Of a stretch of DNA of 48,737 nt, positions 6,125 to 46,399 are shown piece by piece. Position numbers and translations under genes: made by a program. Numbering within the stretch: position 1 is the first letter of the stretch; every line of letters begins with the position of its first letter. Source of the DNA: a phage; sequence record PZ452607.1; one strand, given 5' to 3'. Below the pieces are notes generated by a model that was not told the origin of the DNA, did no database searches, and saw nothing but the letters and a program-made list of their open reading frames with translations.

Positions 6125-6144
6125 TTTAACAAAAAGTGCTATTA
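6125..6144 (-). promoter_or_regulatory. box copy, antisense orientation, late region
   Basis: Reverse complement reads AATAGCACTTTTTGTTAAAG; no convincing -10 at the usual spacing. Confidence 0.4.
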
Positions 6145-9887: not shown

Positions 9888-9907
9888 TTTTAACAAAAAG
9901 TGCTATC
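9888..9907 (-). promoter_or_regulatory. box copy, antisense orientation, late region
   Basis: Reverse complement reads ATAGCACTTTTTGTTAAAAG. Confidence 0.4.
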
Positions 9908-32912: not shown

Positions 32913-32956
32913 ATAGCACCTTTTGTTAAAACAGTACCCGCGAAAGCGGGTATTAT
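32913..32956 (+). promoter_or_regulatory. box + hairpin + -10 element upstream of HNH gene
   Basis: ATAGCACCTTTTGTTAAAAC, 22 nt, TATTAT; hairpin ACCCGC gaaa GCGGGT. Confidence 0.5.
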
Positions 32957-32984
32957 TGTTTTATAGAAACAAGAGGAGATTGCA

Positions 32985-33467
32985 ATGAACTGGCACGAGC
33001 ATTACGAATATAGGGATGGTGTTCTATATCACAAGGTAAAGCCATGCAGAAGGCATGATGTAAATATTGGGGATGTTGCTGGAAGGGTTGCCAAAAACGG
33101 CTATCACTATGTTGTTCACAAGAACAGGCCGTATAAGAGATCTCGAGTTATATGGGAGATGTTTAATGGTGAGATACCAGATGGTTTTGTTATAGATCAT
33201 CTGAATCACAATGCCACCGATGATAGGATCGATAACCTTGAGTGTAAGCCAAGAAGAGAGAATATGGTTAATGTTAAGTTAAGGATTGATAGCACGACCG
33301 GAGTAACTGGCGTATCAATAAAGAGGGATAACAAGTGGAGGGCGTACATAACAATTATGGGTAAGCAGAAGTGCAAGAGCTTTGACACGTTTGAGGAAGC
33401 TTGCGCGCAGAGGATTGAATGGTCAGTAACTCATGATTTTCACCCAAATCACGGTGGAACATACTAA
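32985..33467 (+). CDS. HNH homing endonuclease
   Basis: HNH core (DHLNHN..DDRIDNLE) plus AP2-like DNA-binding tail; paralogous to 37042..37581 and 45258..45752. Confidence 0.75.
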   Translation: MNWHEHYEYRDGVLYHKVKPCRRHDVNIGDVAGRVAKNGYHYVVHKNRPYKRSRVIWEMFNGEIPDGFVIDHLNHNATDDRIDNLECKPRRENMVNVKLRIDSTTGVTGVSIKRDNKWRAYITIMGKQKCKSFDTFEEACAQRIEWSVTHDFHPNHGGTY

Positions 33468-33485
33468 TAGCACCTTTTACCTAAC
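33466..33485 (+). promoter_or_regulatory. degenerate box copy
   Basis: AATAGCACCTTTTACCTAAC directly after HNH stop. Confidence 0.3.
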
Positions 33486-33539
33486 CCGCGCCACAGAAGT
33501 GCGGCATAGTAACCACATCGAAAACAGAGATGCTATATC

Positions 33540-33716
33540 ATGAAGATAGTCAAGTGCATCCGAAATGACTCCAAAACACTTCCATTCCGTGTAAATCAGA
33601 TCTATAGTGTTGGTTATGATTTCGGTGGGGGATTATTTGAGATTTACGACGGACGAGGTTCAGCAATCCAGACTCCTCTGAACGGTCACTACCTGGAATT
33701 TATTGAGATAGATTAA
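33540..33716 (+). CDS. small hypothetical protein (58 aa)
   Basis: Short ORF (not in track) followed by hairpin terminator; no strong RBS. Confidence 0.3.
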   Translation: MKIVKCIRNDSKTLPFRVNQIYSVGYDFGGGLFEIYDGRGSAIQTPLNGHYLEFIEID

Positions 33717-33737
33717 CAATAGCATTCATCACCTTAC

Positions 33738-33769
33738 AGGCTGGCATGATTTACATGCTGGCCTTTTTG
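33738..33769 (+). terminator. intrinsic terminator
   Basis: AGGCTGGCATG..CATGCTGGCCT stem (two wobble pairs) then T5. Confidence 0.45.
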
Positions 33770-33771
33770 CG

Positions 33772-33800
33772 TTGTGTCAAATAAATTTGAAGGTTAAAAT
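33772..33800 (+). promoter_or_regulatory. sigma70-like promoter for lysis cassette (TTGTGT-17-TAAAAT)
   Basis: Hexamers with 17-nt spacer about 35 nt upstream of holin ATG. Confidence 0.4.
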
Positions 33801-33834
33801 CGACTCACTTGTTCAAAAAATATATGGTGAGATT

Positions 33835-34050
33835 ATGAAAGAGTTTTTAACGGCTGCTACGTCAAGCACTGGCGGTGCTTCGTTGGTAGGGGCGGCGACA
33901 GGGCAACTTTATATTGCTGGCGCTACATTCATTTGCTTTCTGCTTTTTGGTGCCTGGGGAGCGTACTGGAAGTATCGTGATAGCAAGGCAATTCAGGAAG
34001 CGTTAAACGATGGCGATCTAAATAAGGCGCTTAAGATCAGGGGGAGATAA
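33835..34050 (+). CDS. holin
   Basis: 71-aa protein with hydrophobic TMD, immediately upstream of endolysin; RBS GGTGAG. Confidence 0.45.
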
Positions 34051-34538
34051 TGAGTTTAAAAAATAACGTTATAGGCGCATCAATCGGGGCCGCTTTGACG
34101 TTGACACCTACCCTACTGGAACGGATCGAAGGTATAGAATACGAGGTTTATTACGATATCGCCGGAGTCCCTACCGTATGCAGCGGAATAACCGGGCCTG
34201 ACGTCATACCTGGTAAGAAATACACTAAGCGAGAATGCGATGCATTGCTGATAAAACATATCGGCGTCGCTCAGCGATACGTTGACAAGAAGGTTAAGGT
34301 TGACATTCCGGTAACTATGCGCGCATCACTGTATAGCTTCACTTTCAACGTTGGGACTGGCGCTTTCGGATCGTCTACAATGCTTAAGCTAATCAATCAG
34401 CGCAAGCACAAAGAAGCGTGTAATCAGTTATGGCGATGGGTATACTACTACAACCCAAAAACCAAAAAGCGCGAAGTGTCGAGAGGGATCAAGAATCGGC
34501 GCGCTGAAGAATACGCATATTGCGTTAAGGAACTATAA
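34050..34538 (+). CDS. endolysin (lysozyme, GH24-like)
   Basis: Catalytic triad spacing E-x8-D-x5-T ([13 protein letters not shown]); ATGA overlap with holin. Confidence 0.7.
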
Positions 34539-34939
34539 TGAAACTTAAGAAAACGTGCATTGCAATTACGGTTGCTGTTGGTGTGATTTCTCTATCCGGT
34601 TGTTCGACGGCATCTGCTCTGAGTGGTTTACTTTCTGACTCCCCGGATGTTACGGCGCAGGTTGGCGCTGAGAACACAAAACAACTAGCAGGAGTAACAG
34701 CAAAGGCGGATGATAAGCGAGAAGTGAAGGTGAGTGATTCAAATATTGGCAAGATTGACTCATCCGTCAAGAAGTCCGTGGAGGTGTCAACCATTCAGGC
34801 CAACACGGTTAACGCTGAAAGCATCACAGTAACCAAATCTGGAAGCTGGTACGATCCTGTGGTTTGCTGGATTCTCGTTTTTATTGTCCTGTTGCTGTTT
34901 TATTTTTTAATTCGTAAGCACGAAAAAAAGGAGGCGTAA
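34538..34939 (+). CDS. unimolecular spanin (lipoprotein with C-terminal TMD)
   Basis: Lipobox LSGC at N-terminus and a single C-terminal TMD, the T1 gp11-type architecture. Confidence 0.6.
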   Translation: MKLKKTCIAITVAVGVISLSGCSTASALSGLLSDSPDVTAQVGAENTKQLAGVTAKADDKREVKVSDSNIGKIDSSVKKSVEVSTIQANTVNAESITVTKSGSWYDPVVCWILVFIVLLLFYFLIRKHEKKEA

Positions 34940-34954
34940 GCCTCCTTTCTTATT
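34922..34954. terminator. bidirectional terminator at end of lysis cassette
   Basis: AGGAGGC gta GCCTCCT flanked by A-run upstream and T-rich tract downstream; overlaps spanin stop. Confidence 0.5.
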
Positions 34955-35061
34955 TGTACCTTTTGACGTGAAGTAGCAACTCCCCATCCTGATCGCAAAG
35001 ATTGTGCTCACCGTCGTTATTGGCCCTCATCGAAGTGAGCAGTAGGCTAAGTAATCCTTGC

Positions 35062-35469
35062 TCAAATTCTTCTTTCGTAAGCTGGAGCCTTGCGCACAAT
35101 TCGACGTTCCGATCTATCAATGTTTCTACGTTCGCCAAACAAGTCTTCATCACTCATTTCTCCAATGTGCATCATTTCCCACGTATATCGATTGTTGTAG
35201 CCATCAATACACATCAGCTTCATCATTACCGGGCGCTTGATCTTTCCCTTGCACCAGTAAAATCCACCCTTGCAATCAAGATAACCCTCAGTCACGCAGC
35301 GTGCGCAAAACTCCTTAGACAGCGCGCTTGTAAATTCACGGCGAGTCATTCCGGCGGCCTTAGCAAATCGCTCACTTTCCTTGTGGGCGTATATAAATTT
35401 CGCTATGTGCTGTCGAGTGTATTTGTCGTAACCTTCGCAGAACCTGAACAGATCTAAAAGAAGAAGCAT
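35062..35469 (-). CDS. hypothetical protein
   Basis: 135-aa Cys-rich ORF downstream of ATPase gene; 3' end overlaps another frame (34950..35153). Confidence 0.35.
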   Translation of the reverse strand: MLLLLDLFRFCEGYDKYTRQHIAKFIYAHKESERFAKAAGMTRREFTSALSKEFCARCVTEGYLDCKGGFYWCKGKIKRPVMMKLMCIDGYNNRYTWEMMHIGEMSDEDLFGERRNIDRSERRIVRKAPAYERRI

Positions 35470-35473
35470 ATTA

Positions 35474-37042
35474 TTAACCCATCAGTCGAGGATTGATGAA
35501 AACAATATCATCAATCCGGCAAGTGTAGTTCATCTCTTCGAGCGTGATCAGCAGGCTGTCGATTCGCTCAGCTACTTTTTGTTGACCGTTGAACGGCGTA
35601 ACGTTACGGCACTTTGCAACAATGCTATGAATAGGTGCGCGACCTTTGTTCTTCTTTGCGATCTCAGTGATAACATCAATCAGCTTACGAGATTCAGCCT
35701 CATCACCAGCATACCCGGCGGCGCTGGCAGACGACAGATAGGTTCTGGAAAGCTCATTGAAAATCATGATCGCTTCCTGCATTGTTTCAAGGTCAATCTC
35801 ACGGTTGGAACGGTTCGGTGATTCACCCTCCCAGTTCTTGATTGTGTGAAGAACTGAAGCAATGCGCAAAGCGTGCTTATCGAACTTGCCGAGATGACCG
35901 CGTAGCATTGAGTGAGAGTATTTGCCCCCGGCTGCGAAATCCGGCTCCATAGCCTGGCGAGCAAGGTTTAATTCACGCATAGCATTACGGCTTACAGAGA
36001 GAACAACGTTGTCCTCCTTCATAATGTTGTGCACAAGTCGATAATATTTACTCACCAATCCTCGATCGACTTCCTTATACAGTGCATCACCATTTTCATC
36101 GCAAAGAATACGAGTGCCTAAAAGAGGTTCCTCGCGAACCAATAGGAAACGCTCAGATACACCGATACCGCGCTGGCCTGCGTCCATGATACCCTTGATT
36201 GTTTCATCCTGCGCAATGACGCAGATCGAACCGACCGGGCAAAGAGATAAGTTATTGTCCTGATTTGAACGCGCAACCTCCATATGGTTTTTATCCCACG
36301 CCTTGAGGATAAGCTCGCTGTTTGATTTCTTATCAGAACCGCCATAAGTCAGGCCAAGCAATGTATTTATTGCCGTTGCCTCATCAGAGATTACGGAAAA
36401 GTGGCCTTGAACAGCAGCTACTTTCGCAAGACCTTCCGGTGTAGGATCTGATACCGCGAAAACAATATCAGCCATCTTCTTGATCTTCTCTTCCAGTTTT
36501 TCCTTGTCCTCGTACAGCGCCGCCGTCGTGTTACCCTTCGGATCGTTTTTGATTTCCTTCTCGATCTGACGTAGCTGACTGGTTAAACGGATACGTTCCT
36601 TTTTGCGCTCTTCATTCAGTCTCTGAATCTCTGCGCGCATAGGTGTAATCGCCGCTGAGTTAATCGCGGATTTACCTGTTGATGGTGGCTGGCTAATCAC
36701 CATATAAAGAGCGGTCGGTTGTTCTTCTCCGTGATATTGCACCCAAAACTTCCCTAGCATCGCGGCTGAGATGCACCCAATGAAATGAGCGTACGCAGAC
36801 GAAACAGGAAACTGTACAGACTCAGCTTTTGCTTTTGCATATTCGAATACCAGGTTATCGCCACCTAACGAAATCAGCGGGAACTTATCGTTTCCACTGT
36901 TGATATCGATCGGGTCTTGCCAAAACGAAACTGAATCCCCGTAGCTGTTTTCACGAATTGCGATCGCCACCGGATTAACTCCAGTGCTATTTGCGATCTC
37001 AATAATCTGTTGGTAATTCAGTTTTGGCTTAATATTAAACAT
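35474..37042 (-). CDS. P-loop ATPase, putative replication protein (DUF3987-like)
   Basis: Walker A-like PPSTGKS and Walker B-like VIAQDE; RBS AAGGAG before ATG (minus) at 37042; track ORF has 21-codon N-extension. Confidence 0.45.
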   Translation of the reverse strand: MFNIKPKLNYQQIIEIANSTGVNPVAIAIRENSYGDSVSFWQDPIDINSGNDKFPLISLGGDNLVFEYAKAKAESVQFPVSSAYAHFIGCISAAMLGKFWVQYHGEEQPTALYMVISQPPSTGKSAINSAAITPMRAEIQRLNEERKKERIRLTSQLRQIEKEIKNDPKGNTTAALYEDKEKLEEKIKKMADIVFAVSDPTPEGLAKVAAVQGHFSVISDEATAINTLLGLTYGGSDKKSNSELILKAWDKNHMEVARSNQDNNLSLCPVGSICVIAQDETIKGIMDAGQRGIGVSERFLLVREEPLLGTRILCDENGDALYKEVDRGLVSKYYRLVHNIMKEDNVVLSVSRNAMRELNLARQAMEPDFAAGGKYSHSMLRGHLGKFDKHALRIASVLHTIKNWEGESPNRSNREIDLETMQEAIMIFNELSRTYLSSASAAGYAGDEAESRKLIDVITEIAKKNKGRAPIHSIVAKCRNVTPFNGQQKVAERIDSLLITLEEMNYTCRIDDIVFINPRLMG

Positions 37043-37581
37043 CACAATAAACTCCTTAGTTGACGGCGTGAATGATACACCGTCAATGGTACACGCGTTT
37101 TGCAAAAAGTGCTATTCGATCCGTGATTCTCATGAAAACCGTATAGCCTTTCCGCTTCCTTCCTTGCTTTAGCCGCTGCATCCAGCGTCATGAAGGTCCC
37201 TAAGTGTTTTGTCTTTTTATTTATGGTTATGTTTGCCGTGTATCTATTTGTTTTTTTATTCCAATACACTCCCATAACTCCTGTGTTTGATGACACTACT
37301 CCCTTGTTTCTTAGGTTGTCTTGCCTAGTTACTAGCCTGAGATTCTCAATTCTGTTATCGTCTCTTTCATGGTTTATGTGGTCTACATCCATTCCTTCTG
37401 GTATGTTTCCGTAGTGTATTTTCCATACTATTCGATGGGCGTATTCAAATACACCTCCTGGAAAACATATTGACCGATAACCTTTTTTATTAACAGTTCC
37501 GGCAAGTAGATTTCGTCTTCTTCCGATTCTCCACTCTTTCCAGTACAGTCTCCCGCTAACGTATTTCAGTTCATCTTTCAT
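37042..37581 (-). CDS. HNH homing endonuclease
   Basis: HNH core (DHINHERDDNRIENLRLV) plus AP2-like tail; C-terminal about 25 codons read through the promoter box of the downstream gene; stop overlaps next start (TGATG). Confidence 0.7.
   Translation of the reverse strand: MKDELKYVSGRLYWKEWRIGRRRNLLAGTVNKKGYRSICFPGGVFEYAHRIVWKIHYGNIPEGMDVDHINHERDDNRIENLRLVTRQDNLRNKGVVSSNTGVMGVYWNKKTNRYTANITINKKTKHLGTFMTLDAAAKARKEAERLYGFHENHGSNSTFCKTRVPLTVYHSRRQLRSLL
37072..37116 (-). promoter_or_regulatory. box + hairpin + -10 element upstream of ATPase gene (inside 3' end of HNH ORF)
   Basis: Minus strand AATAGCACTTTTTGCAAAAC, 22 nt, TATCAT; inverted repeat TTGACGGTG/CGCCGTCAA around -10. Confidence 0.5.
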
Positions 37582-37994
37582 AAGTATTTACTCTCAAAGG
37601 TTGTGCCGTCTGCGATACTAAAACCAACCTCTTCGCGGAATAAGGTCCAGCGGCAACCGTCCTCATCAAAGATGTAACCAGCTACGCCTCCAAGAGCGCG
37701 ACCGCTTTCTACCTGGTAACGCTTTCCAACCTTGAATGATTTTTTCATTGGGTTGCGATGGTCAAGTCCGGTGCACTTGAGCGTCTTTGTTTTCAACTCG
37801 GTGAACTTCGCGAAGAAGATTTCATCAGATCCGTGAATATGTAATTCATCATGCTTTTCAAGTTTTAAATACTTCCCGCATTTTAACTTTACTTCACGAG
37901 TATCATCATAGCGCTCACGACCTTTGTACAGATTGTTTACTTCGAATCCTGTGATTTTGTCTGCGGAAGTGCATTTAAGTTTGATTGATTTCAT
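37578..37994 (-). CDS. hypothetical protein
   Basis: 138-aa ORF with box/-10 element upstream. Confidence 0.4.
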   Translation of the reverse strand: MKSIKLKCTSADKITGFEVNNLYKGRERYDDTREVKLKCGKYLKLEKHDELHIHGSDEIFFAKFTELKTKTLKCTGLDHRNPMKKSFKVGKRYQVESGRALGGVAGYIFDEDGCRWTLFREEVGFSIADGTTFESKYL

Positions 37995-38030
37995 TGTGTT
38001 CGCTCCTGATTGGTTATCTTGAATAAGGCC

Positions 38031-38076
38031 ACTTTATCAAATGACCTTACGGCAATATTAACAAATCGTGCTATTT
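38031..38076 (-). promoter_or_regulatory. box + hairpin + -10 element
   Basis: Minus strand AATAGCACGATTTGTTAA, 22 nt, TAAAGT; box follows TAA stop of acidic-protein gene. Confidence 0.5.
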
Positions 38077-38284
38077 ACCAGGGAATATAATCGTCAACGT
38101 CCTCATTAATATCATCACCGGGTAACTCAAAGTTAGGATCGTATTCGCTTTCAGCATCCATATCCATATCACCAAGAGCCTCGTCAAGTGTGATTTCTTT
38201 ATATGCTACCTTGATGCACCATTCGGAACTAAGTCCGGCATCAAGCGCTGCAAAATAACGAGTCCAGAAATTATCTTGTTCCAT
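38075..38284 (-). CDS. small highly acidic protein (candidate DNA mimic)
   Basis: 69 aa; C-terminal half dominated by D/E (..DEALGDMDMDAESEYDPNFELPGDDINEDVDDYIPW). Confidence 0.4.
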   Translation of the reverse strand: MEQDNFWTRYFAALDAGLSSEWCIKVAYKEITLDEALGDMDMDAESEYDPNFELPGDDINEDVDDYIPW

Positions 38285-38287
38285 TAA

Positions 38288-38512
38288 TTAGCCCCACGAA
38301 TTAATGTAAATCGAGTTAGCCTCAAGCGTTGCACGAACATCCGCATCTGTTGCATTTATCAGTCGAGAGCCTGGCACGCTTCCGATAACACTATTTCCGT
38401 TACGCGTCTTAGTTACCGTCATTGAAATAAAGCCTGAAGACTTATCCATCTTGATAAATACACGGCCTTTTGCGTTCAGGTGCTTGATGATATTCTCAAC
38501 TTTAATGCTCAT
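38288..38512 (-). CDS. hypothetical protein
   Basis: RBS AAAGGA before internal ATG; box/-10 element upstream. Confidence 0.4.
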   Translation of the reverse strand: MSIKVENIIKHLNAKGRVFIKMDKSSGFISMTVTKTRNGNSVIGSVPGSRLINATDADVRATLEANSIYINSWG

Positions 38513-38545
38513 TTTTGATTCCTTTGTTTTGTTTGGTATGGGAGT

Positions 38546-38592
38546 AATATACCTTACTCCCCGATGTGTGTCTTTAGCAATTTGTGCTATCA
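38546..38592 (-). promoter_or_regulatory. box + hairpin + -10 element
   Basis: Minus strand GATAGCACAAATTGCTAAAG, about 22 nt, (G)TATATT; stem GGGGAGTA/TACTCCC. Confidence 0.45.
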
Positions 38593-38733
38593 GCACTCAG
38601 AAATTACTTTACACTCTTTGATCGTGCCGCCGAGAACTACCTTTTGCATCATTGCTTTTTGGCGACTATCGTAAACGCGAACATTTTTTACGCTGTTAAA
38701 CTTTCCTGTATAGAAAGTGTGAACATAAATCAT
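38590..38733 (-). CDS. small hypothetical protein (47 aa)
   Basis: ATGA overlap with upstream gene stop; own stop lies inside a box copy; not in ORF track. Confidence 0.3.
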   Translation of the reverse strand: MIYVHTFYTGKFNSVKNVRVYDSRQKAMMQKVVLGGTIKECKVISEC

Positions 38734-39050
38734 TTTTTACCGTCCCATGTTTGATATGCCGTAACCAGGTTAATGCTATGGTCGAACTCGTCAACGCTAA
38801 GCGATCCGATTCTAACAAGCTCTTTGTTGTGCTTAATGTCAACCATCCGGCTATATGGATGACCTGGCGCGTATTTAAATAGACGCTTGCTGTCGGCAAT
38901 GTCTGCGTTAATTCCGTAGAATCGGCCTACTGCCGCCTTAACGCGCTCCATGATGTTTTTTTCGTGGATTGCCGCCGCGTTATTTAGTGCCGCAACCGTA
39001 CTTCCGTTAATCTTCGGTGACTTCGTTGTGATTTTGTAAGTGTGGTTCAT
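38730..39050 (-). CDS. hypothetical protein
   Basis: RBS AGGGGGA before ATG (minus) at 39050; track ORF longer. Confidence 0.4.
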   Translation of the reverse strand: MNHTYKITTKSPKINGSTVAALNNAAAIHEKNIMERVKAAVGRFYGINADIADSKRLFKYAPGHPYSRMVDIKHNKELVRIGSLSVDEFDHSINLVTAYQTWDGKK

Positions 39051-39066
39051 TATTCCCCCTAACCAG

Positions 39067-39267
39067 TCAGGATAGCTTTCTAGCTTCATCAATGATAACA
39101 GGTTCGAGACGCTCAAGTCGAACGCGGAACGTGTTCATAAATCCCTCGTTATTCTTCAATAACTCGAAGGCGTCCGTAGCTTCAATGGCGCTACTACCCA
39201 TGTAAGCGATTACGCGCTTCTGTGTTTTTCGTGAGATCGCCACTACGCGGTAAATATTATCACTCAT
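39067..39267 (-). CDS. hypothetical protein
   Basis: RBS AAGGAGG before ATG (minus) at 39267. Confidence 0.4.
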   Translation of the reverse strand: MSDNIYRVVAISRKTQKRVIAYMGSSAIEATDAFELLKNNEGFMNTFRVRLERLEPVIIDEARKLS

Positions 39268-39631
39268 ACAATGCCTCCTTAACACGATCCGCTACGAATG
39301 AGTTAACGGTGATTGAATAGTCAGCCACGAAGCAAGGAGCAACACTGCCTGGCTCAGTGCGCATGAATGGTTTATTGAACTGAGTGATTACCTCGCCAGT
39401 ATCGTTATCAATTAAGCGAGACGCGCCTAAGCGGTCCACCACGCGCGTTACGCGGTCCACGCACTCCATTACATCACTTACGTCATAATAGGCGGTTAGA
39501 GCGGCTATCATTGCCTTCTCTTGCTTGTTGTGAATCTTACGCGCAATGTTCTCTATCGCAACGTGCACTTTCTCGTCAGTCTGGATTACCGAGCTGGCTG
39601 AGAAGTCCAGATCTGTGAACTGCTTAAACAT
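39260..39631 (-). CDS. hypothetical early protein (first gene of leftward early block)
   Basis: RBS GAGGAAAG; two tandem box elements upstream. Confidence 0.45.
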   Translation of the reverse strand: MFKQFTDLDFSASSVIQTDEKVHVAIENIARKIHNKQEKAMIAALTAYYDVSDVMECVDRVTRVVDRLGASRLIDNDTGEVITQFNKPFMRTEPGSVAPCFVADYSITVNSFVADRVKEALYE

Positions 39632-39663
39632 AATACTTTCCTCGTTTACTGTTGATGTGATGA

Positions 39664-39709
39664 ATCATACCCAGTAGACATGGATAAGTCGTTAGCAAAA
39701 AATGCTATT
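39664..39709 (-). promoter_or_regulatory. box + -10 element upstream of leftward early block
   Basis: Minus strand AATAGCATTTTTTGCTAACG, 23 nt, TATGAT. Confidence 0.45.
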
Positions 39710-39787
39710 CCAATAATTGCTCATTATTCCATCAATACTGGAATATCTGGAATAATCACTATCATGATTGATCTCTAATGATGAGAT

Positions 39788-39827
39788 GTGATTGTTGCAT
39801 GGTGTGCAACTGTTGATGTGATTGTTT
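39788..39827. repeat. direct repeats GATGTGATTGTT (third related copy near 39652)
   Basis: gatgtgattgttgca...ctgttgatgtgattgtttc; ctgttgatgtgatgaatca at 39650..39668. Confidence 0.5.
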
Positions 39828-39893
39828 CTTAGAATGCAATGATTGTGAGAGGGGGGATCTAGTGTTACCAGGTTCGCCTGGTAGTCATCTCCA

Positions 39894-39915
39894 TTTTTAG
39901 CAAAAAGTGCTATCG
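39894..39915 (-). promoter_or_regulatory. box copy, second (distal) copy upstream of leftward early block
   Basis: Minus strand GATAGCACTTTTTGCTAAAAAT followed by hairpin ACCAGG cgaa CCTGGT. Confidence 0.4.
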
Positions 39916-40190
39916 ATTACGATTACGCTTGATTGCGTGTTAATCATTGTATATGATTTGCCTAAATCGCAATCGTATACAAAATTACGCCAAATTACGC
40001 CTTATAATATACATATAGATATATGTATATATATAATATATAAGTGTTTTTTTTATTTATATATATAGATACTATTATTTGTAATATGGTTGTATAGCGT
40101 GTCTTTTATGTTAATCGTTGGATGCTCTGATTATGATGCTCATGTTTATATATACAGTAGTTTTATCGGCGCATATTTATTTAGGGAAAT

Positions 40191-40217
40191 CGATTAACAC
40201 GATTAACACGATTAACC
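40191..40217. repeat. tandem 9-bp repeat CGATTAACA x3
   Basis: cgattaaca cgattaaca cgattaacc; related copies CGATTACGATTACG at 39914..39927 and AAATTACGCC x2 at 39982..40001. Confidence 0.6.
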
Positions 40218-40260
40218 ACACTTAAAATCGCCCCGCAGACCTTGACACATGCGGGTCGTC

Positions 40261-40293
40261 GTGTAACACTACGATTAGAGACACGGTGTTACA
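40261..40293. repeat. inverted pair GTGTAACAC ... GTGTTACA upstream of first rightward early gene
   Basis: Half-sites about 17 bp apart, just downstream of a TTGACA hexamer at 40242. Confidence 0.5.
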
Positions 40294-40331
40294 TGTTAAT
40301 CATGGTGTATATTGAAACTAAGGAGAAAGCT

Positions 40332-40907
40332 ATGAGTTCTTACCAGTCAGACGCAGTACAGGCAGCAATCAAGGCAGCTTACGAGAAGGCCGGAGTAACG
40401 GTTGAGCAGCGACCGGAGGCAAAAGTGACCGATGTTATCCGGGCCGCCTGCGATCAGCTTTATGGTGATGGCGAGAATACCGAGTTCACATTCGACGCGA
40501 ATAAGATGGCTGAGGCCGCAGCAAGAAAGTCGATGCCAGACGCTGACGAACATGATGTTGCCAAAGGCGCCGAGTCCTGGTTGCTCGGGAAGACGGATGA
40601 GATTAACGAGAAGTTTAAATCCTCATTCATCACCCCGATCGTTTCTCGACACTTCTCCAAGATCGGCAAGTCGGTCAAGGTGAGCGTGACCATGAACGAT
40701 GAGAAGTTGCGAGTCGTTACTATCTCAGTGAGTGACGAAGAAGTTCCGGTGAAGAAGCGCCGCAGCCGGAAAAAAGTCAGCCTGGCTGATTGTCTGGATT
40801 CGTTTGTTCCTGATGTTGATGATCTTGAGAAAGGCGACGTTACTGTAAGCACCGTGCGCGACCTGGTTCGCCAGATGAAAGCGCATATCGAAAAATGTGG
40901 ACTGTAA
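40332..40907 (+). CDS. hypothetical early protein (first gene of rightward early block)
   Basis: RBS AAGGAGAAAG before ATG 40332; preceded by iteron-rich control region; basic C-terminal patch KKRRSRKK. Confidence 0.45.
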   Translation: MSSYQSDAVQAAIKAAYEKAGVTVEQRPEAKVTDVIRAACDQLYGDGENTEFTFDANKMAEAAARKSMPDADEHDVAKGAESWLLGKTDEINEKFKSSFITPIVSRHFSKIGKSVKVSVTMNDEKLRVVTISVSDEEVPVKKRRSRKKVSLADCLDSFVPDVDDLEKGDVTVSTVRDLVRQMKAHIEKCGL

Positions 40908-40919
40908 GGAGAAGTAATT

Positions 40920-41246
40920 ATGTTTAATATCAAACCATTAACAGAAGCAGAGAAACAGGCTCAGGCCAAGCAAACCGAAAACATCCAAGTGATCGCTGAT
41001 GCGCTGATTGGTAAGAGGTCAATCAAAATAAACCTCGACACTGTTGGTCAGTCATTTTTTACTAAAGGTTTGGATAAGTACGTTATAAATGTGAAGGCGA
41101 GAGACCTGGTGGCGAGAATTCAAAAGCTAAACAATCAAAAGCTAAAGCTCATCAAGGTCGAAGGCAACATGTGCGAAATTGAGAACCTCAGCGCACCAGA
41201 CCCGAATAAGTGGGAAATCACCGATGTCGAGTTTATCGTAGAATAG
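40920..41246 (+). CDS. hypothetical protein
   Basis: RBS AAGGAGAAG; stop TAG lies inside a box copy. Confidence 0.45.
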   Translation: MFNIKPLTEAEKQAQAKQTENIQVIADALIGKRSIKINLDTVGQSFFTKGLDKYVINVKARDLVARIQKLNNQKLKLIKVEGNMCEIENLSAPDPNKWEITDVEFIVE

Positions 41247-41286
41247 CACTTTTTGTTAAAACCGGATCGGGGTATCTTGCTATAGT
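41243..41286 (+). promoter_or_regulatory. box + hairpin + extended -10 element
   Basis: AATAGCACTTTTTGTTAAAAC, 22 nt, TGcTATAGT; stem GGGGTA/TACCCC. Confidence 0.55.
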
Positions 41287-41324
41287 TACCCCATCAAAAC
41301 GAGATACCAATCAGAGGAATCACC

Positions 41325-41555
41325 ATGTCAATCGTCAAGAACCAGCAAGCCATCGATTCAACCAATAACAACCGCTTTGCTATTTTCATCACTCGCGACA
41401 ACAAGCGCTTTGCAGTAAAGGCCGTACCAGGTGGATACAAAACCTACATGGAAGATAACGGAAAGTGGGTGCGGTGCGACAACCTCGCAAACTTCTTGGT
41501 CTGGAACGCAGACCTGCAGGGATTCGATGACATCAGCACTTTAATTGAGGAGTAA
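41325..41555 (+). CDS. hypothetical protein
   Basis: RBS AGAGGAA; box/hairpin/-10 element upstream. Confidence 0.45.
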   Translation: MSIVKNQQAIDSTNNNRFAIFITRDNKRFAVKAVPGGYKTYMEDNGKWVRCDNLANFLVWNADLQGFDDISTLIEE

Positions 41556-41560
41556 TAATC

Positions 41561-41788
41561 ATGCCACGTTACAGCAACCTAACTCAACTAACCCGCGTCA
41601 ACGGGCACATGATCCCGGCAAAATCCACTCACTACGCAATGGGAGCAAAGCACGGATTGTATTTCAAATGGCGCGGTCAATGGAACTTCACGGTTATTCG
41701 TAATTTCTACATTAGAGTTACAGGTGATGACCCGCAATCGGTCGTAGAGAACTCAATCGGCGACAACAAGATCGAGGTGCTGAAATGA
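41561..41788 (+). CDS. hypothetical protein
   Basis: RBS GAGGAG shortly after previous stop. Confidence 0.45.
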   Translation: MPRYSNLTQLTRVNGHMIPAKSTHYAMGAKHGLYFKWRGQWNFTVIRNFYIRVTGDDPQSVVENSIGDNKIEVLK

Positions 41789-41895
41789 ACTTCAACATAA
41801 TTGCTTTCTGGTCTGCCGTATGGTTCTTTTGCGTAGGTCATGTTGTGGTTGGAATCGTAATCATGTTGCTACTGTGTGCGGGAGCGTTCGAATGA
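41785..41895 (+). CDS. small hydrophobic membrane peptide (36 aa)
   Basis: ATGA overlap with previous gene; one predicted TMD; not in ORF track. Confidence 0.35.
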   Translation: MNFNIIAFWSAVWFFCVGHVVVGIVIMLLLCAGAFE

Positions 41896-42065
41896 TGCGG
41901 ATTCTGATTTGCATGATGGCGGCGGTCGCCATGGCTATCCTGGTAGTGTCCGGCTGCGGCGAGGCCAGGGATAGCTGTCATGAAACCGGGAGCCAGGTTA
42001 CTACTTTCGTGATGGTTGGCAACGTATTGCTACCAATAACATCAAATGAAATCACTTGCGAATAG
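41892..42065 (+). CDS. small lipoprotein (57 aa)
   Basis: Signal peptide with lipobox VVSGC; start overlaps stop of preceding peptide; stop inside a box copy. Confidence 0.4.
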   Translation: MMRILICMMAAVAMAILVVSGCGEARDSCHETGSQVTTFVMVGNVLLPITSNEITCE

Positions 42066-42105
42066 CACTTTTTGTTAAAACTCAACTCCGGGGTTGCGAT
42101 ATAGT
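42061..42105 (+). promoter_or_regulatory. box + hairpin + -10 element
   Basis: AATAGCACTTTTTGTTAAAAC, 22 nt, TATAGT; stem GGGGTT/AACCCC. Confidence 0.55.
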
Positions 42106-42136
42106 AACCCCATCGACAACGAACGAGGACGCAAAC

Positions 42137-42625
42137 ATGAAAATTAAATTACTTAGCAATGGCGGTTACAAGGGATTCACCCGCGACCTGGAAGCTGACC
42201 CTATCGTGGTTGACGCGGTTAAGTGCGACTCAAGTACTGGAGGCTACCGCGTTAAGGTTGATGACCTTGTAAAAGCTGGCGTGTACGATCTTGATTATGG
42301 CCTGTCGGTTAGCCCGGTATTTGGCCCAGCTGACTTCAACGAGAAAGACGGAACGATGTTCTTTTTTGATTGGGAAGTGAAGGCAAACATCAAGCCGCGC
42401 AAGGTTCGTCTTCTCAGCAATGGCGGCTACCCGATGCGACCAGGTTATGAGAATCGCACGTTCCCGGTTATCGTTGACTTCATTGGGACAACTGACAACT
42501 TGGTATACGTTAGCCATGAGCAACTTAAGGCAGTTGGATTCGTTGGCGGTATGAATAAAGAAGCGCTTTGCTTCTTCCATCGATGTCCAGAGCCGATCGG
42601 TATTGAGTGCGAGTTAGTATACTAA
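42137..42625 (+). CDS. hypothetical protein with internal duplication
   Basis: Two copies of K(I/V)(K/R)LLSNGGY motif about 100 residues apart; box/-10 element upstream. Confidence 0.45.
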   Translation: MKIKLLSNGGYKGFTRDLEADPIVVDAVKCDSSTGGYRVKVDDLVKAGVYDLDYGLSVSPVFGPADFNEKDGTMFFFDWEVKANIKPRKVRLLSNGGYPMRPGYENRTFPVIVDFIGTTDNLVYVSHEQLKAVGFVGGMNKEALCFFHRCPEPIGIECELVY

Positions 42626-42666
42626 GCACGAATTGTTAAAAGGGGATTTGGCCTGACTGGTATAAT
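42621..42666 (+). promoter_or_regulatory. box + hairpin + extended -10 element
   Basis: AAGCACGAATTGTTAAAAG, 22 nt, TGgTATAAT; stem GGGGATT/AATCCCC. Confidence 0.55.
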
Positions 42667-42696
42667 CCCCACATCAACCACTAATAGGAAAGCATC

Positions 42697-42894
42697 ATGT
42701 TAAAATTAAAAGATATTCAGTTCCCTGTAGTATTTAACACTATTAGCTGCGGTAAAATAACCTGCCACAGCAAAGATCGCGCAACAGATTCATCATTCAA
42801 TGAGTGCCACCCGTCTATTGTTGGTAATCTTATTGAGCTTCATAACAATCACAATCCTGATAACATCCCATCTCTTCCATATTATGTTGAGTGA
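42697..42894 (+). CDS. hypothetical protein
   Basis: Cys/His-containing 65-aa ORF downstream of box/-10 element with TATAAT. Confidence 0.4.
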   Translation: MLKLKDIQFPVVFNTISCGKITCHSKDRATDSSFNECHPSIVGNLIELHNNHNPDNIPSLPYYVE

Positions 42895-42984
42895 GTCGGG
42901 CCTGGTTGGAAGGTTGGTCGCTCCATCTTCCATGCAGCAAAGCCAGAAATCAAGCCAGCGCTACAATGCACTCAGATCGAGAAC

Positions 42985-43182
42985 ATGCCATTGAGCGCGA
43001 CACTAAAAGGTGTCCAACTTGATAGCGAATCCTGGATCGAGATTACCGCCACGCCTAAAACTATTGAGGTACATGATGATGTGGTGATTCTCCTGTTGCA
43101 TTACGGCAGCTTTAAGCACAAGACGGTATCAGGTGAAATCAGCATTAAGCGCGGAACTCTTGTCCGCTACGAGGTGAAATAA
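42985..43182 (+). CDS. hypothetical protein
   Basis: ORF with weak RBS. Confidence 0.3.
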   Translation: MPLSATLKGVQLDSESWIEITATPKTIEVHDDVVILLLHYGSFKHKTVSGEISIKRGTLVRYEVK

Positions 43183-43331
43183 TGACTGCATGGGTCTTGA
43201 TTATCTTGATGAGCAAAGGTCCGGATCACGTATACATGGAAAGTCAACAATCATGCAACAAGGCACGGGAAGTTATCGCAGAGAACAAGCCGTTCGGATA
43301 TGAAGTAAAAACTATGTGCGTTAAACGATAG
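43182..43331 (+). CDS. small hypothetical protein (49 aa)
   Basis: ATGA coupling with previous gene; N-terminal hydrophobic stretch; stop TAG inside box. Confidence 0.3.
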   Translation: MTAWVLIILMSKGPDHVYMESQQSCNKAREVIAENKPFGYEVKTMCVKR

Positions 43332-43371
43332 CACGAATTGCTAAACCTTCCGCAAGGCCATTTGATATAGT
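43327..43371 (+). promoter_or_regulatory. box + hairpin + extended -10 element
   Basis: GATAGCACGAATTGCTAAAC, 22 nt, TGaTATAGT; stem GGCCA/TGGCC. Confidence 0.55.
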
Positions 43372-43411
43372 GGCCTTATTGAAGCACGACAACCAACTGG
43401 AGGTAAAATTT

Positions 43412-43786
43412 ATGAAATTCGAATGTATCAGCGATAACACCAAAAAATTTACTGTTGGCAAAATTTACGATGTTCCGACTGAGCACACAGAGCAAACCGT
43501 AGCTCTGACCGACGACACGGGCCGCAACCGAATTGCAACCGTAACTCACAACGGTGAAGGTCTTCGCTGGAATAGCGGCGGCACTAAGTTCGCAACGTTC
43601 GACAAGAAGCGCAAGCGCACCTTCCGCGTCAACGGCAATGTTGCAGCTAACAAGATCCATAACGTCAAGCCGTCGGAAGTTGACCGCAAGCCAGCGCTGA
43701 AGTTTAAAGAGAAGGTGGATTTATTCAATCTTGCCGCCTCGCTTGTTCTCCTGGTCGCTGCTATTTCGCTGCTTTCCATCATGTAA
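43412..43786 (+). CDS. hypothetical C-tail-anchored membrane protein
   Basis: RBS GGAGG; soluble basic domain then one C-terminal TMD; followed by terminator. Confidence 0.45.
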   Translation: MKFECISDNTKKFTVGKIYDVPTEHTEQTVALTDDTGRNRIATVTHNGEGLRWNSGGTKFATFDKKRKRTFRVNGNVAANKIHNVKPSEVDRKPALKFKEKVDLFNLAASLVLLVAAISLLSIM

Positions 43787-43793
43787 TGCTAAT

Positions 43794-43828
43794 GGGGAAT
43801 CGACTCTGAACGGTTCCCCTTTCTTTTG
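43794..43828 (+). terminator. intrinsic terminator
   Basis: GGGGAA..TTCCCC stem then T-rich tract. Confidence 0.5.
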
Positions 43829-43934
43829 GAGAAAACACTATGCCAGACTTTTCTAACTGGAATAACGAGCCGCCATCATTTCAGGAGTTGCTATTCTGCC
43901 TCCTGGTCCTGACATTATCTCTTAAGGGTGTTTT

Positions 43935-44153
43935 ATGGCTACTATCATGACAGTAGAAGATGCAGCACGCGATGCAGTGGAAGGAATGCGCCCAAATACC
44001 TCCAGAATAGCACACTACTACAAATCTGAGGTGTCGGTAGTGCAATTGGTCCACGAAATTTTAAGGCTCCCACAAGTCGATTCAGCGCGCGTTGTGACGT
44101 GCTTAAAAAATTATTTTTGCATCACTATTAAAACGAATAGCACGAATTGCTAA
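43935..44153 (+). CDS. hypothetical protein
   Basis: 72-aa ORF; 3' end reads through box copy; overlaps a possible 36-aa hydrophobic ORF at 43840..43950. Confidence 0.3.
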   Translation: MATIMTVEDAARDAVEGMRPNTSRIAHYYKSEVSVVQLVHEILRLPQVDSARVVTCLKNYFCITIKTNSTNC

Positions 44154-44180
44154 AACCTATCAAGGGGAATACGCTATGAT
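44136..44180 (+). promoter_or_regulatory. box + hairpin + -10 element
   Basis: AATAGCACGAATTGCTAAAAC, 22 nt, TATGAT; stem GGGGAAT/ATTCCCC. Confidence 0.55.
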
Positions 44181-44210
44181 TCCCCTACACCAACAAACGA
44201 GGAAGCGATC

Positions 44211-44657
44211 ATGAAACACTTAATCTGCATTGAAGCGCCTAACGATCAATACACCCTGCATGGACTTGGTGTGTTCAAAGGTCACTACATTACCGCAGGA
44301 ACTTACGATGCTCGTCGCGGCGATGGCGACCTAATGATTACGTCAAAAGAAGTAAATCCGTACATCATGCAGAATCTTGGCAATAACGAATATATGGCCT
44401 ATGGCTGCAACGCGGTGTACAAGCACGTTAAGATCCGCAAGCGTGTTGTGCGTGCATTCAAGAAGATTGCAATTAAATACTGGAAAATGAGCAAGAAAGA
44501 TGCCGGACGTTGGGCGCGCAACGTTGCAGATTCATACTTCTATCGTAACGGCGAATCCTGCTACTTCCTGATCGATGAACTTATGGAAAACTACGGTGGC
44601 GACTTCAGCCAGGGTAGCTTTGATGACTGGGCCAACTATGAGATCAGTTGCTGGTAA
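44211..44657 (+). CDS. hypothetical protein
   Basis: RBS GAGGAAG; box/hairpin/-10 element upstream. Confidence 0.45.
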   Translation: MKHLICIEAPNDQYTLHGLGVFKGHYITAGTYDARRGDGDLMITSKEVNPYIMQNLGNNEYMAYGCNAVYKHVKIRKRVVRAFKKIAIKYWKMSKKDAGRWARNVADSYFYRNGESCYFLIDELMENYGGDFSQGSFDDWANYEISCW

Positions 44658-44700
44658 TAGCACGAATTGCTAAAACTTGCTCAAGGGCATTTGTTAGAAT
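44656..44700 (+). promoter_or_regulatory. box + hairpin + extended -10 element
   Basis: AATAGCACGAATTGCTAAAAC, 22 nt, TGtTAGAAT; stem AAGGGCATT/AATGCCCTT. Confidence 0.55.
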
Positions 44701-44740
44701 GCCCTTCGTTGAGTTAAGCAACCAATCAGAGGAATAAATC

Positions 44741-45271
44741 ATGGATAAAATCACAATTTGGGGCCAGACAATCAACCTGTTTCTCGGCACGCGCCGAGTG
44801 GCAATCTTTGACTTTGACGGGACACTTAGCGATGGATCTGGTCGACTTCACCTGCTGCCAACAAAGGATTTGCACTTGACTGAAAGCTGGTCTGAGTTTA
44901 ACCGAGCGGCAATATTTGATAACCCAATCCAGAGCACGATCGATGTGATGAACTCTATGTTTGCCGCTGGGTATCATGTGATCATTTTAACCGGGCGAAG
45001 TGATGAGGTGCGTTACGCATCTGAGTTATGGCTTAAGCATCACGGCGCTCGATATGATTACTTAGTCATGCGACCGCATACCGACAACCGCAAAGACACG
45101 GTAATGAAAGAAGAGGCAGTGCGCGCTATCGGCATTGATAACATTCTTGCGGCTTGGGATGACTCAGTGAATATAATAAAAAAATTCAGAGATCTAGGGA
45201 TAACCACATATCAGGTTTGTGAATATGCCTGTGATAGTCGAGAGGATTTAAATAGTCATGGTGTCGATTGA
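44741..45271 (+). CDS. HAD-superfamily phosphatase
   Basis: Motif I FDFDGT, motif II ILTGR, motif IV WDDS. Confidence 0.6.
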   Translation: MDKITIWGQTINLFLGTRRVAIFDFDGTLSDGSGRLHLLPTKDLHLTESWSEFNRAAIFDNPIQSTIDVMNSMFAAGYHVIILTGRSDEVRYASELWLKHHGARYDYLVMRPHTDNRKDTVMKEEAVRAIGIDNILAAWDDSVNIIKKFRDLGITTYQVCEYACDSREDLNSHGVD

Positions 45272-45752
45272 TAACAAATCAATGGTAAGAGAGTTATTTA
45301 CTTATTCTGACGGCGTTCTGTATTGGAAGGCCAAATCATCTAAATACAGTAGAACTAAAATAGGAGGCGCGGCAGGAAGCAAGGATAAAGACGGATACAT
45401 AATAATCAGAGTAAGAAACGAAACTAGAGGCGCTCACAGGCTTGTATGGATATACCATAATGGCAAGATACCTGATGGAATGGAGGTAGACCATATGGAT
45501 GGAGACATAACAAACAATAGAATAGAAAACCTAAGATTGGTAACGAGAACCATAAATAACAGGAATCAAAAAAAGAGATCTGATAACACAACCGGAGTAT
45601 CCGGTGTAACTTTCATGAAAGATAGAGGAAAGTATAGGGCGCAAGTTAGAAACAAGAGACTCGGGCAGTTCGACACAATAGAAGAGGCCGCCAAAGCAGT
45701 AAAGGATGAGCGGGATAGATTAGGTTTATTCACAAAAAGACACGGGGTGTAA
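45258..45752 (+). CDS. HNH homing endonuclease
   Basis: HNH core (DHMDGDITNNRIENLRLV) plus AP2-like tail; lies between phosphatase and kinase genes. Confidence 0.75.
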   Translation: MVSIDNKSMVRELFTYSDGVLYWKAKSSKYSRTKIGGAAGSKDKDGYIIIRVRNETRGAHRLVWIYHNGKIPDGMEVDHMDGDITNNRIENLRLVTRTINNRNQKKRSDNTTGVSGVTFMKDRGKYRAQVRNKRLGQFDTIEEAAKAVKDERDRLGLFTKRHGV

Positions 45753-45754
45753 AC

Positions 45755-46327
45755 ATGAAAACAGCTATCATTTTAAACGGCGCACCTGGTGCGGGAAAGG
45801 ACACTATCGGATGCATCCTGGCTGACACTTACGATCATGTAGCGCTACGCAGCTTCAAAGCGCCAATGTTTGAGATTGCCCGAGCAATCCTGGGTGAGAC
45901 TAATTTCGAGTATTTCATGTTCTTGTATGAGGACCGTCGCTATAAAGAAGAGCCAGCGTCAATCCTGAACGGTAAAAGCCCGCGCCAGTTTATGATCTGG
46001 ATTAGCGAGGAGGTCATCAAGCCGCAGTTCGGAAATCGCTTCTTCGGTATGCGAGCGGAAAGTAAGGTGAAAGAGTCGCATTCACTTTCGGTATTTACTG
46101 ACGGTGGATTCAAAGACGAGATCTTGCAGATGATTGAAGGTGACATCCAGGTCAAGCTGTGTCGAATCCATCGCAACGGTTGCAACTTTGACAACGACAG
46201 TCGCGACTATATCTATCTTGACGATATGATCGGGGTCAACGGTTATCAGGAGTGTGACTTCTTTTCTGTCGAAGGCCATCCAGAAATTACCGCTCAGCAC
46301 ATAGCCGCCACGTTCATCAATAAATAG
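45755..46327 (+). CDS. P-loop nucleotide/polynucleotide kinase
   Basis: Walker A GAPGAGKDT at N-terminus; size fits dNMP kinase or Pnk kinase domain. Confidence 0.55.
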   Translation: MKTAIILNGAPGAGKDTIGCILADTYDHVALRSFKAPMFEIARAILGETNFEYFMFLYEDRRYKEEPASILNGKSPRQFMIWISEEVIKPQFGNRFFGMRAESKVKESHSLSVFTDGGFKDEILQMIEGDIQVKLCRIHRNGCNFDNDSRDYIYLDDMIGVNGYQECDFFSVEGHPEITAQHIAATFINK

Positions 46328-46367
46328 CACGAATTGCTAAAACGTCGGTGTGGTGATTTGATATAGT
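46323..46367 (+). promoter_or_regulatory. box + extended -10 element
   Basis: AATAGCACGAATTGCTAAAAC, 22 nt, TGaTATAGT; TAG of box is the kinase stop codon. Confidence 0.55.
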
Positions 46368-46399
46368 TACCTCATCGACAACGAAGAGAGAAAATCGAA

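Follow-up and report, generated by a model that had tools for sequence, protein, structure and literature searches.

The seg and mob genes of phage T4 are free-standing endonuclease genes; they spread through intronless homing and cause localized marker exclusion. The seg products are GIY-YIG enzymes, and only mobE and I-TevIII are of the HNH type; T4 endonuclease genes are restrained by a hairpin that sequesters the Shine-Dalgarno (SD) sequence. Here we analyse three HNH endonuclease genes, which we call HNH1, HNH2 and HNH3, in a phage sequence of 48,737 nucleotides (record PZ452607.1; the whole of this stretch is referred to as the window), together with a short direct-repeat box that recurs between the genes. 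The window is a strain of coliphage T1 (Drexlerviridae, Tunavirus), rotated so that terL comes first. The three genes very probably belong to one large phage family of free-standing homing endonuclease genes, were acquired independently of one another and have spread by intronless homing, judging from presence and absence at exact sites, divergent flanks at two of the three sites, and the occurrence of the same lineage at the same site in another subfamily.

Like the seg and mob type of T4 gene, the T1 genes are intergenic, optional and absent from close relatives, leave their neighbours undisrupted and are linked to divergent flanks. Their enzymatic counterpart is I-HmuI of phage SPO1 (1U3E), which is likewise of the HNH_3 type and aligns over the VDH...N...N stretch. 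Unlike the free-standing T1 genes, I-HmuI is encoded within a group I intron, and the C-terminal region of the T1 proteins, which is weakly AP2-like, did not align with the C-terminal part of I-HmuI, a nicking enzyme. The GenBank notes for all three T1 genes also name T7 gp3.8, phiYeO3-12 gp1.45 and HNH-like proteins of T5, a similarity at the level of annotation. Terminase-associated HNH cofactors of the HK97 gp74 type are adjacent to terminase genes, an adjacency that the T1 genes do not share.

The DNA around the genes also has described counterparts. PeSL cassettes of T4-type phages are, like the T1 box, short intergenic stem-loop repeats that flank optional genes; promoter and terminator activity has been measured for PeSLs, whereas the T1 box is known from sequence alone (PMC2839356, PMC4122927). 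A 2024 reannotation of phage TLS describes a 21-nt direct repeat, aaATAGCACnnnTTGnTAAAA, which is oriented with transcription and precedes start codons by about 76 nt (PMC11447400). The same paper finds the repeat in T1, Rtp and Rogue1 and suggests a stoperator, an enhancer-binding site or an UP-like element, its function not being established (PMC11447400). It makes no connection between the repeat and HNH insertions, upstream stop codons or a 22-nt spacing to a -10-like hexamer.

The window and the prior record

Positions 32000-39794 of the window are 100% identical to positions 41043-48836 of T1 (AY216660/NC_005833), and the match continues into T1 position 1. Across the region of the three HNH genes, identity to T1 is 99.9-100%; here a window coordinate equals the T1 coordinate minus 9043, and T1 position 1 corresponds to window 39794. 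Because the window falls 99 nt short of the deposited T1 record and differs from it by scattered single-nucleotide polymorphisms, it is a T1 strain and not a copy of any single record. HNH1 and HNH3 of the window each differ by one residue from all T1 and JMPW2 records in the collection.

All three genes are already annotated as HNH endonucleases in GenBank (HNH1 as orf15/CPTT1_065, HNH2 as orf8/CPTT1_072 and HNH3 as orf63/CPTT1_015). A 2017 paper, in which T4's complement of seg and mob genes is also mentioned, reported that SH6 and pSf-2 are without 'the three homing HNH endonucleases' of T1 (PMC5238451). The genes and their absence from relatives are therefore annotated and published, and they are unsurprising as ordinary selfish-gene biology. 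In the literature searched we found no analysis of the T1 HNH junctions and no nuclease or homing assays. What is new here is the placement of the junctions to the base, the cause of a read-through at HNH2, the chimeric nature of the exonuclease gene and a site with a conserved leader where HNH genes recur.

Three members of one HNH family

A preliminary description of the window had listed three paralogous HNH genes with an AP2-like tail, and all three open reading frames (ORFs) are present: HNH1 (32985-33467, + strand; 160 aa), HNH2 (37042-37581, - strand; 179 aa) and HNH3 (45258-45752, + strand; 164 aa). The shared HNH core is confirmed by strong matches of all three proteins to Pfam HNH_3 (PF13392), with E = 3.4e-19, 5.7e-22 and 2.1e-22 for HNH1, HNH2 and HNH3, respectively, and scores of 68.7, 77.5 and 78.9 bits against a gathering cut-off of 24.8. 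Residues D71, H72, N84, N93 and N96 (HNH1 numbering) of the D-H...N...N pattern are invariant in all three, and we take their catalytic roles to be those of the equivalent residues of I-HmuI. That enzyme was the one clear solved relative of a profile of the three genes (E = 3.9e-8, across the catalytic core).

The AP2-like tail fares less evenly. AP2 (PF00847) matches HNH2 (28.4 bits, E = 2e-6) and HNH3 (21.3 bits, E = 3e-4) below its cut-off of 33.3 bits, and for HNH3 the T1 record cites InterPro AP2/ERF. In HNH1, which has no such match, the tail is suggested by alignment, the columns TGV.GV...A...K..F.T..A being common to all three T1 proteins. The architecture that we propose for the family is an I-HmuI-like HNH_3 core followed by a putative C-terminal DNA-binding region of AP2 type.

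Searches with tblastn found exactly three copies in T1 and family members in >3,000 phage records. The three T1 proteins share 36-42% pairwise identity, and each is nearer to a protein of another phage: HNH1 to that of AugustePiccard (78% identical), HNH2, which is 100% identical in JMPW2, to Salmonella phage genes (57%), and HNH3 to the Eco_BIFF gene (94% at the amino acid level) and then, as its best match outside T1, JMPW2 and Eco_BIFF, to a gene of TH21 (66%). They are therefore separately acquired family members and not duplicates that arose within T1. 'Paralogous' is thus apt for membership of one family and misleading if taken to mean siblings.

Presence and absence at the three sites

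All three HNH genes occur together only in T1 and JMPW2, and Eco_BIFF has HNH3 and a different HNH gene at site 2. The spans at each site are shorter in about 35-37 other Tunavirus genomes. Instead of the same HNH genes at the same positions in all relatives, we found HNH-less alleles at all three sites in most Tunavirus genomes, and the homing-endonuclease reading withstands this comparison. About 15 loci were sampled by sequence. Presence and absence occur at the same site between intact neighbours, and the junctions can be defined to the base at all three sites.

Co-inherited flanking DNA accompanies two of the genes, as co-conversion would lead one to expect, amounting to ~930 nt on the left and ~37 nt on the right of HNH1 and ~110 nt on the left of HNH3; none was seen at HNH2. 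The same lineage also occupies the same site in divergent genomes, HNH1 in AugustePiccard and HNH3 in Eco_BIFF. Under intronless homing, when T1 and an HNH-less relative share one cell the enzyme would cut or nick the relative's DNA near the empty site, and repair from the T1 copy would carry the HNH gene and some of its flank into the relative.

HNH1 and a chimeric exonuclease gene

In the records compared, site 1 is 555 nt shorter in about 35 relatives. HNH1 is free-standing and forms a 554-nt cassette with its own leader of box, hairpin and ribosome-binding site, bounded by a repeat of the 5' half of the box. The exonuclease gene that precedes it is 95-99% identical to that of SH6 up to ~31940 and then only 56-71% (the drop falls at about 31940-32040); where it departs from SH6 it becomes more like Rtp and ACG-M12, with identity to these going from 50-68% to 79-96%. 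At 313 informative sites, at which SH6 differs from the consensus of Rtp, ACG-M12 and DTL, T1 agrees with SH6 over the first ~42 and almost throughout the remainder with the Braunvirinae; the switch lies between 31945 and 31990. The T1 exonuclease is 87% identical in amino acid sequence to those of Rtp, ACG-M12 and DTL, and 67% to that of SH6. Tunavirus-type homology is back at 33503, inside the downstream box element, which puts the right crossover at ~33503.

The T1 exonuclease gene is thus a chimera, HNH1 having come in with a block of Rtp/Braunvirinae type of ~1.5 kb (31950-33503, + strand). The block comprises the HNH1 cassette (554 nt) together with ~930 nt of the 3' part of the exonuclease gene before it and ~37 nt of the box after it. 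Its donor was Rtp/Braunvirinae-like, and the left crossover falls within the exonuclease gene. We read this block as a co-conversion tract, which is what gene conversion accompanying homing would leave. As a chimera, the T1 exonuclease gene should stay out of phylogenies.

The leader of HNH1 (32912-32984, + strand) opens with the box AATAGCACCTTTTGTTAAAAC (32912-32932), which follows the exonuclease stop codon TAA. It contains the hairpin CCCGC-GAAA-GCGGG in an extended stem (32933-32954), which has a T-run, is terminator-like on both strands and is annotated as a terminator, as well as a -10-like hexamer TATTAT (32951-32956) and the SD sequence GAGGAG (32973-32978). At the other end of the gene, the HNH1 stop codon TAA (33465-33467) overlaps a degenerate box, AATAGCACCTTTTACCTAAC, which with its hairpin and a -10-like CATAGT spans 33466-33510 (+ strand); AATAGCACCTTTT is common to both flanking boxes. 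HNH1 therefore has a box on either side, at 32912 and 33466, as the preliminary description had it beside one. The leader has a predicted fold of -28.5 kcal/mol (z = -7.0) in which part of the SD pairs with the box, a hairpin like those that restrain T4 endonuclease genes, and such SD sequestration may gate the translation of HNH1 in read-through transcripts. Four phages share the structure, one base pair having changed in a compensatory way, but with sequences >90% identical among the four the support from this is weak.

Other phages, too, have an HNH gene at this junction. In AugustePiccard (Braunvirinae) the 78%-identical HNH1 homologue sits at the same exonuclease/DUF7244 junction, beside an exonuclease gene that is 65% identical, and there is an unannotated 142-aa HNH (39%) at the junction in DTL and a 164-aa HNH (42%) in ACG-M12. 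The ~70-nt leader is near-identical in T1, AugustePiccard, DTL and ACG-M12, and the box after the HNH gene in these four phages matches the single box of the empty Rtp site. Elsewhere in the genomes the leader CCGCGAAAGCGG was not found; it occurs only after the exonuclease gene. The possibility that the leader travels with HNH genes to other positions was rejected on account of this confinement. In about ten other members of the family, a box of some kind precedes the gene by ~72 nt.

In DTL (NC_047893), the HNH ORF of 142 aa is intact and has a T1-type leader; it lies at 1794-2222 within a gap of 626 nt, from the exonuclease gene to ORF 5, that is unannotated in RefSeq, and its product is without the C-terminal FH.NHG motif seen in relatives. 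In ACG-M12 (NC_019404, 2509-3553), the HNH gene comes after the exonuclease gene, and the PNK and dNMP-kinase genes come immediately next, so that the neighbourhoods of T1 sites 1 and 3 are adjacent in this phage.

HNH3 and the 3' end of the PNK gene

The first 14 nt of HNH3 overlap the end of the PNK gene, and 2 nt separate the HNH3 stop codon from the ATG of the dNMP-kinase gene. It is present only in T1, JMPW2 and Eco_BIFF. Because the HNH-less alleles of SH6 and JMPW1 hold a hydrophobic ORF of ~36 aa in this interval instead, with a longer PNK C-terminus in JMPW1 as well, HNH3 did not simply insert but took the place of other sequence. Over its final ~110 nt (45150-45257, + strand), the PNK gene is 58-70% identical to SH6 and JMPW1, compared with 92-100% further upstream, and 96% identical to Eco_BIFF. 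Among the loci compared, this recoded tract occurs only in HNH3-bearing genomes, and no donor was found. HNH3 thus replaced the small ORF between the PNK and dNMP-kinase genes and came with the ~110 nt of recoded PNK 3' end. No box lies within 500 nt of HNH3, the nearest copies being at 44656 and 46323.

The interval is variable in other ways. The PNK C-terminus differs within Tunavirus, the JMPW1 type having ~26 extra residues that include a CxxC pair (JMPW1 442-1053 compared with window 44741-45271), and the ~36-aa hydrophobic peptide encoded before the dNMP-kinase gene in HNH-less alleles is missing from T1. In Shigella phage vB_SsoS_008 (MK335533, ~990-1430), the HNH3 and small-ORF alleles form a patchwork on a ~10-nt scale with several deletions, and the kinase gene beside this PNK/dNMP-kinase patchwork is annotated in fragments. 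The patchwork could represent a decaying endonuclease gene, or a consensus from a mixed population with and without HNH3.

HNH2 and its read-through tail

HNH2 lies just upstream of a gene annotated as 'helicase / putative ATPase' (35474-37042, - strand; Pfam DUF3987, E = 2.9e-42), which we call the helicase gene. The record spans at site 2 are 459 nt shorter in about 37 phages. We aligned the site at base level with the empty alleles of SH6, JMPW1 and BrunoManser and with the occupied allele of Eco_BIFF. The actual insert is 463 nt long (37117-37579, - strand), has no stop codon of its own and replaces 4 nt, AACC, of the empty alleles just upstream of the helicase box. In the three empty alleles the homologue of ST7 ends ...TAC TTA TAA and is followed by CC, the box, the hairpin, AAGGAG and the helicase ATG; the spacer is 76 nt in each, and the FCWL1 annotation has the same spacing. 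A larger insert in FCWL1, which its span had suggested, was rejected, as the annotation gives an ordinary empty site.

The start codon of HNH2 consists of the native AT and the first inserted G, within an ATGA overlap with the stop codon of the upstream gene. At its other end the insert finishes ...CAC GGA TCG and runs directly into AAT AGC ACT TTT TGC AAA ACG ... TTG TGA TG. The last 24 codons of HNH2 (37045-37116, - strand) are therefore native intergenic DNA, with the same sequence in the HNH-less alleles. They pass through the box (37116-37096, with AATAGCACTTTTTGCAAAAC at 37116-37097), the hairpin TTGACGGTG...CGCCGTCAA (37086-37060), a -10-like TATCAT (37077-37072) and the SD sequence AAGGAG of the helicase gene (37057-37052). 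The HNH2 stop codon (37044-37042) then overlaps the helicase ATG (37042-37040) as TGATG. Both the overlap and the read-through of box, hairpin and ribosome-binding site had been recognized in the preliminary description, which put the latter at about 25 codons; by alignment to the empty alleles it is exactly 24.

The reason for the read-through had been missed. The frame stays open for 24 codons because the helicase box reads TTGCAAAAC and not TTGCTAAAAC, and so is without the in-frame TAA that ends ST66 and ST23. With the canonical copy of the box found in BrunoManser, the HNH2 ORF would end after six codons. A protein tail of 24 residues can thus be a by-product of the insertion of a gene in front of a regulatory repeat.

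At the identical junction, Eco_BIFF and Lg3 have an HNH that is ~40-44% identical to HNH2, and the last 24 nt of their insert are identical to those of T1. In their box TGC (37101-37099 in the window) is now TGA, so that the HNH ends five codons into the box, and the TTGCAA motif is altered. This TGA is derived, because the empty alleles read TGT or TGC there. The earlier suggestion that HNH2 has not yet acquired its own stop gains support from these phages, and T1 fits an earlier state relative to the Eco_BIFF/Lg3 stop. That the insertion is recent, as was also suggested, is not borne out: the junction and the last 24 nt are shared with a divergent HNH, and the junction may therefore be old or reused. 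The pattern in T1 compared with Eco_BIFF and Lg3 suggests partial gene replacement within a site that was already occupied. In Eco_BIFF the last ~70 nt of the gene upstream of the HNH are also divergent.

The flanks of HNH2 are 96-100% identical to the empty alleles up to the junction, with no divergent flank. HNH2 is inserted at the 5' edge of the helicase gene's box, with ATGA and TGATG as its joints, and its translation may be coupled to that of the helicase gene. The hairpin of the helicase box has weak energy support (z = -1.0), and what speaks for it is that T1 and the empty alleles both keep it, differing by wobble changes. Matches through the HNH2 tail obtained by tblastn in the Salmonella phages Skate and PJN025 were set aside for their different gene context, which was seen for Skate.

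The box as a common end of T1 genes

The box at these sites is the published TLS-type direct repeat, with the same consensus, orientation and distance from start codons. T1 has ~24 copies at ≤2 mismatches to ATAGCAC-N4-TG-N-TAAA, 13 of them perfect and most of them intergenic, and the count observed at 3 mismatches was reached by none of 100 shuffles. The box is a partial palindrome, TAGCA-N5-TGCTA. In every copy read, a -10-like hexamer lies exactly 22 nt past TTGnTA, usually with the hairpin around it. A simple sigma-70 scan did not call the boxes, because TTGnTA sits 22 nt from the hexamer. This spacing and the missing calls led us to reject a canonical sigma-70 promoter. A sigma-54 promoter was likewise rejected on inspection by eye, since the box is TGGCAC-N5-TTGC-like and its GG-to-GC spacing is 2 nt short. 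The term 'promoter element' used in the preliminary description therefore finds no backing in the scan or in the literature, which treats the box as a direct repeat of unestablished function.

T1 genes that precede a box usually draw their stop codon from it. Five genes use the TAG inside ATAGCAC, several stop at a TAA that overlaps or abuts the first A of the box, and ST66 and ST23, which enter in the frame AAT-AGC-AC., end at the TAA of TGnTAAAA. A gene end exactly at the box edge is thus the usual arrangement in T1. A box is present at ~18 of the ~72 same-strand gene junctions of T1; the probability that at least two of three random junctions have one is about 0.16-0.23, and the association of HNH genes with boxes is therefore not beyond chance. 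Each HNH gene had been said to adjoin a box. This is so for HNH1 and HNH2, whereas around HNH3 there is no TAGCAC core in 45000-46000, and with one gene boxless and two of three at chance level a rule that the genes lie at box junctions fails. We also rejected the general rule that the HNH family abuts a downstream box, which among 80 IMG/VR loci is seen only in T1, JMPW2 and DTL.

Homing and its alternatives

Several points weigh against homing. The ~1.5-kb block at site 1 could come from ordinary homologous recombination without an endonuclease, and at HNH2, because the flanks are not divergent, the argument for mobility is presence and absence alone. Most of the ~35 empty genomes were judged by alignment spans, with SH6, JMPW1 and BrunoManser compared at sequence level and FCWL1 by annotation. 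HNH1 has no AP2 match at E ≤ 0.01, and those of HNH2 and HNH3 lie under the Pfam threshold. In the literature searched there is no report of cleavage activity, a target site or super-Mendelian inheritance for any T1 HNH.

One alternative is the shuffling of cassettes by recombination between box copies, in the manner for which PeSLs are a precedent (PMC2839356), with the HNH genes as passengers. The HNH1 cassette is bounded by AATAGCACCTTTT, a direct repeat of the 5' half of the box; the same leader and downstream box surround HNHs that are only 37-44% identical (T1, AugustePiccard, DTL and ACG-M12); in Rtp the empty site amounts to exactly one box; and ~10 homologues elsewhere have a box ~72 nt upstream. 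However, the left breakpoint in T1 is ~930 nt inside the exonuclease gene and not at a box, so that, unlike in the PeSL model, the acquisition breakpoints are not both at boxes. HNH3 is boxless, HNH2 has a box on one side only, and across the wider family a box just downstream is confined to T1, JMPW2 and DTL. Furthermore, the cargo is an HNH gene in four of four occupied alleles of the exonuclease site, which is hard to square with the movement of arbitrary DNA by boxes, and we know of no mini-circles for the T1 box. Shuffling is therefore an unlikely explanation of the three genes, although a box-mediated route may contribute at the exonuclease site. The proteins might alternatively target the box itself, their AP2-like domain recognizing ATAGCAC...TGnTAAAA or its junction. 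As this would have it, the ends of both HNH1 and HNH2 coincide exactly with the first A of AATAGCAC, and four different HNH lineages occupy the exonuclease/box junction; yet with ~24 boxes in T1 an enzyme specific for the box would repeatedly cut the genome that encodes it, HNH3 is not near a box, two of three is the chance level when about a quarter of junctions have one, and ends at the box edge are normal for T1 genes. We regard this targeting as extremely improbable.

It is also very improbable that the genes have been domesticated, whether as a packaging cofactor of HK97 type, for the exclusion of competing phages or, for HNH2, through a tail that couples translation to the helicase gene. 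The three ORFs are intact with conserved catalytic residues, and HNH2 is coupled at both ends (ATGA and TGATG), such that ribosomes finishing HNH2 would open the hairpin before the helicase SD. Against this, close relatives do without all three genes, and the terminase subunits of SH6 are 99% identical to those of T1 (PMC5238451). None of the genes is beside terS or terL, the nearest, HNH3, being ~2.4 kb and nine genes upstream of terS, and T1 packages by headful from a pac site. The HNH2 tail, moreover, is set by native regulatory DNA that is identical in HNH-less phages, and it is shortened in Eco_BIFF and Lg3. Homing thus remains by far the more probable account of the three genes, and the preliminary description, which had named them homing endonuclease genes, was right for the most part.

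The junction maps supply ready substrates and expectations for first homing experiments in a T1-type phage, namely the empty SH6 and JMPW1 sites and marker gradients of ~930 nt and ~110 nt. Beyond phage genomics these findings have little import.

The box as a possible gene joint

The more interesting loose end is the box itself. We can suggest, as a speculation that we rather doubt, that it is a general gene joint, combining stops in two frames with a hairpin and a -10-like hexamer, that HNH cassettes of Drexlerviridae exploit, perhaps through PeSL-like recombination; the site after the exonuclease gene would then be a recurrent landing pad for several HNH lineages that reuse its SD-sequestering leader. 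If so, the HNH2 read-through would be the exception that exposes the rule.

At most junctions with a box, the gene end and the box are fused, for example at 41242, 42061, 46323 and 44136 of the window. Boxes with their downstream elements can be seen at 41242-41290, 42061-42109, 43327-43375, 44136-44184, 44656-44704 and 46323-46371. The arms of the hairpin vary from copy to copy and stay complementary (GGGGTA/TTACCCC, AGGGCAT/ATGCCCT and AGGCCA/TGGCCT). Relative to a would-be start 7 nt after the hexamer, the centre of the palindrome is near -42, a placement that suits an activator or operator site and not a -35 element.

Three perfect boxes lie on the minus strand. Two of them, at 6125-6142 (-) and 9889-9906 (-), lie opposite to the surrounding late genes in the gaps ST48/ST47 and ST41/ST40, and the third, at 39896-39913 (-), is near the left end of the T1 record (T1 position 120). 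None of the three has an annotated gene downstream on its own strand, which is at odds with the published rule that the repeat runs along transcription.

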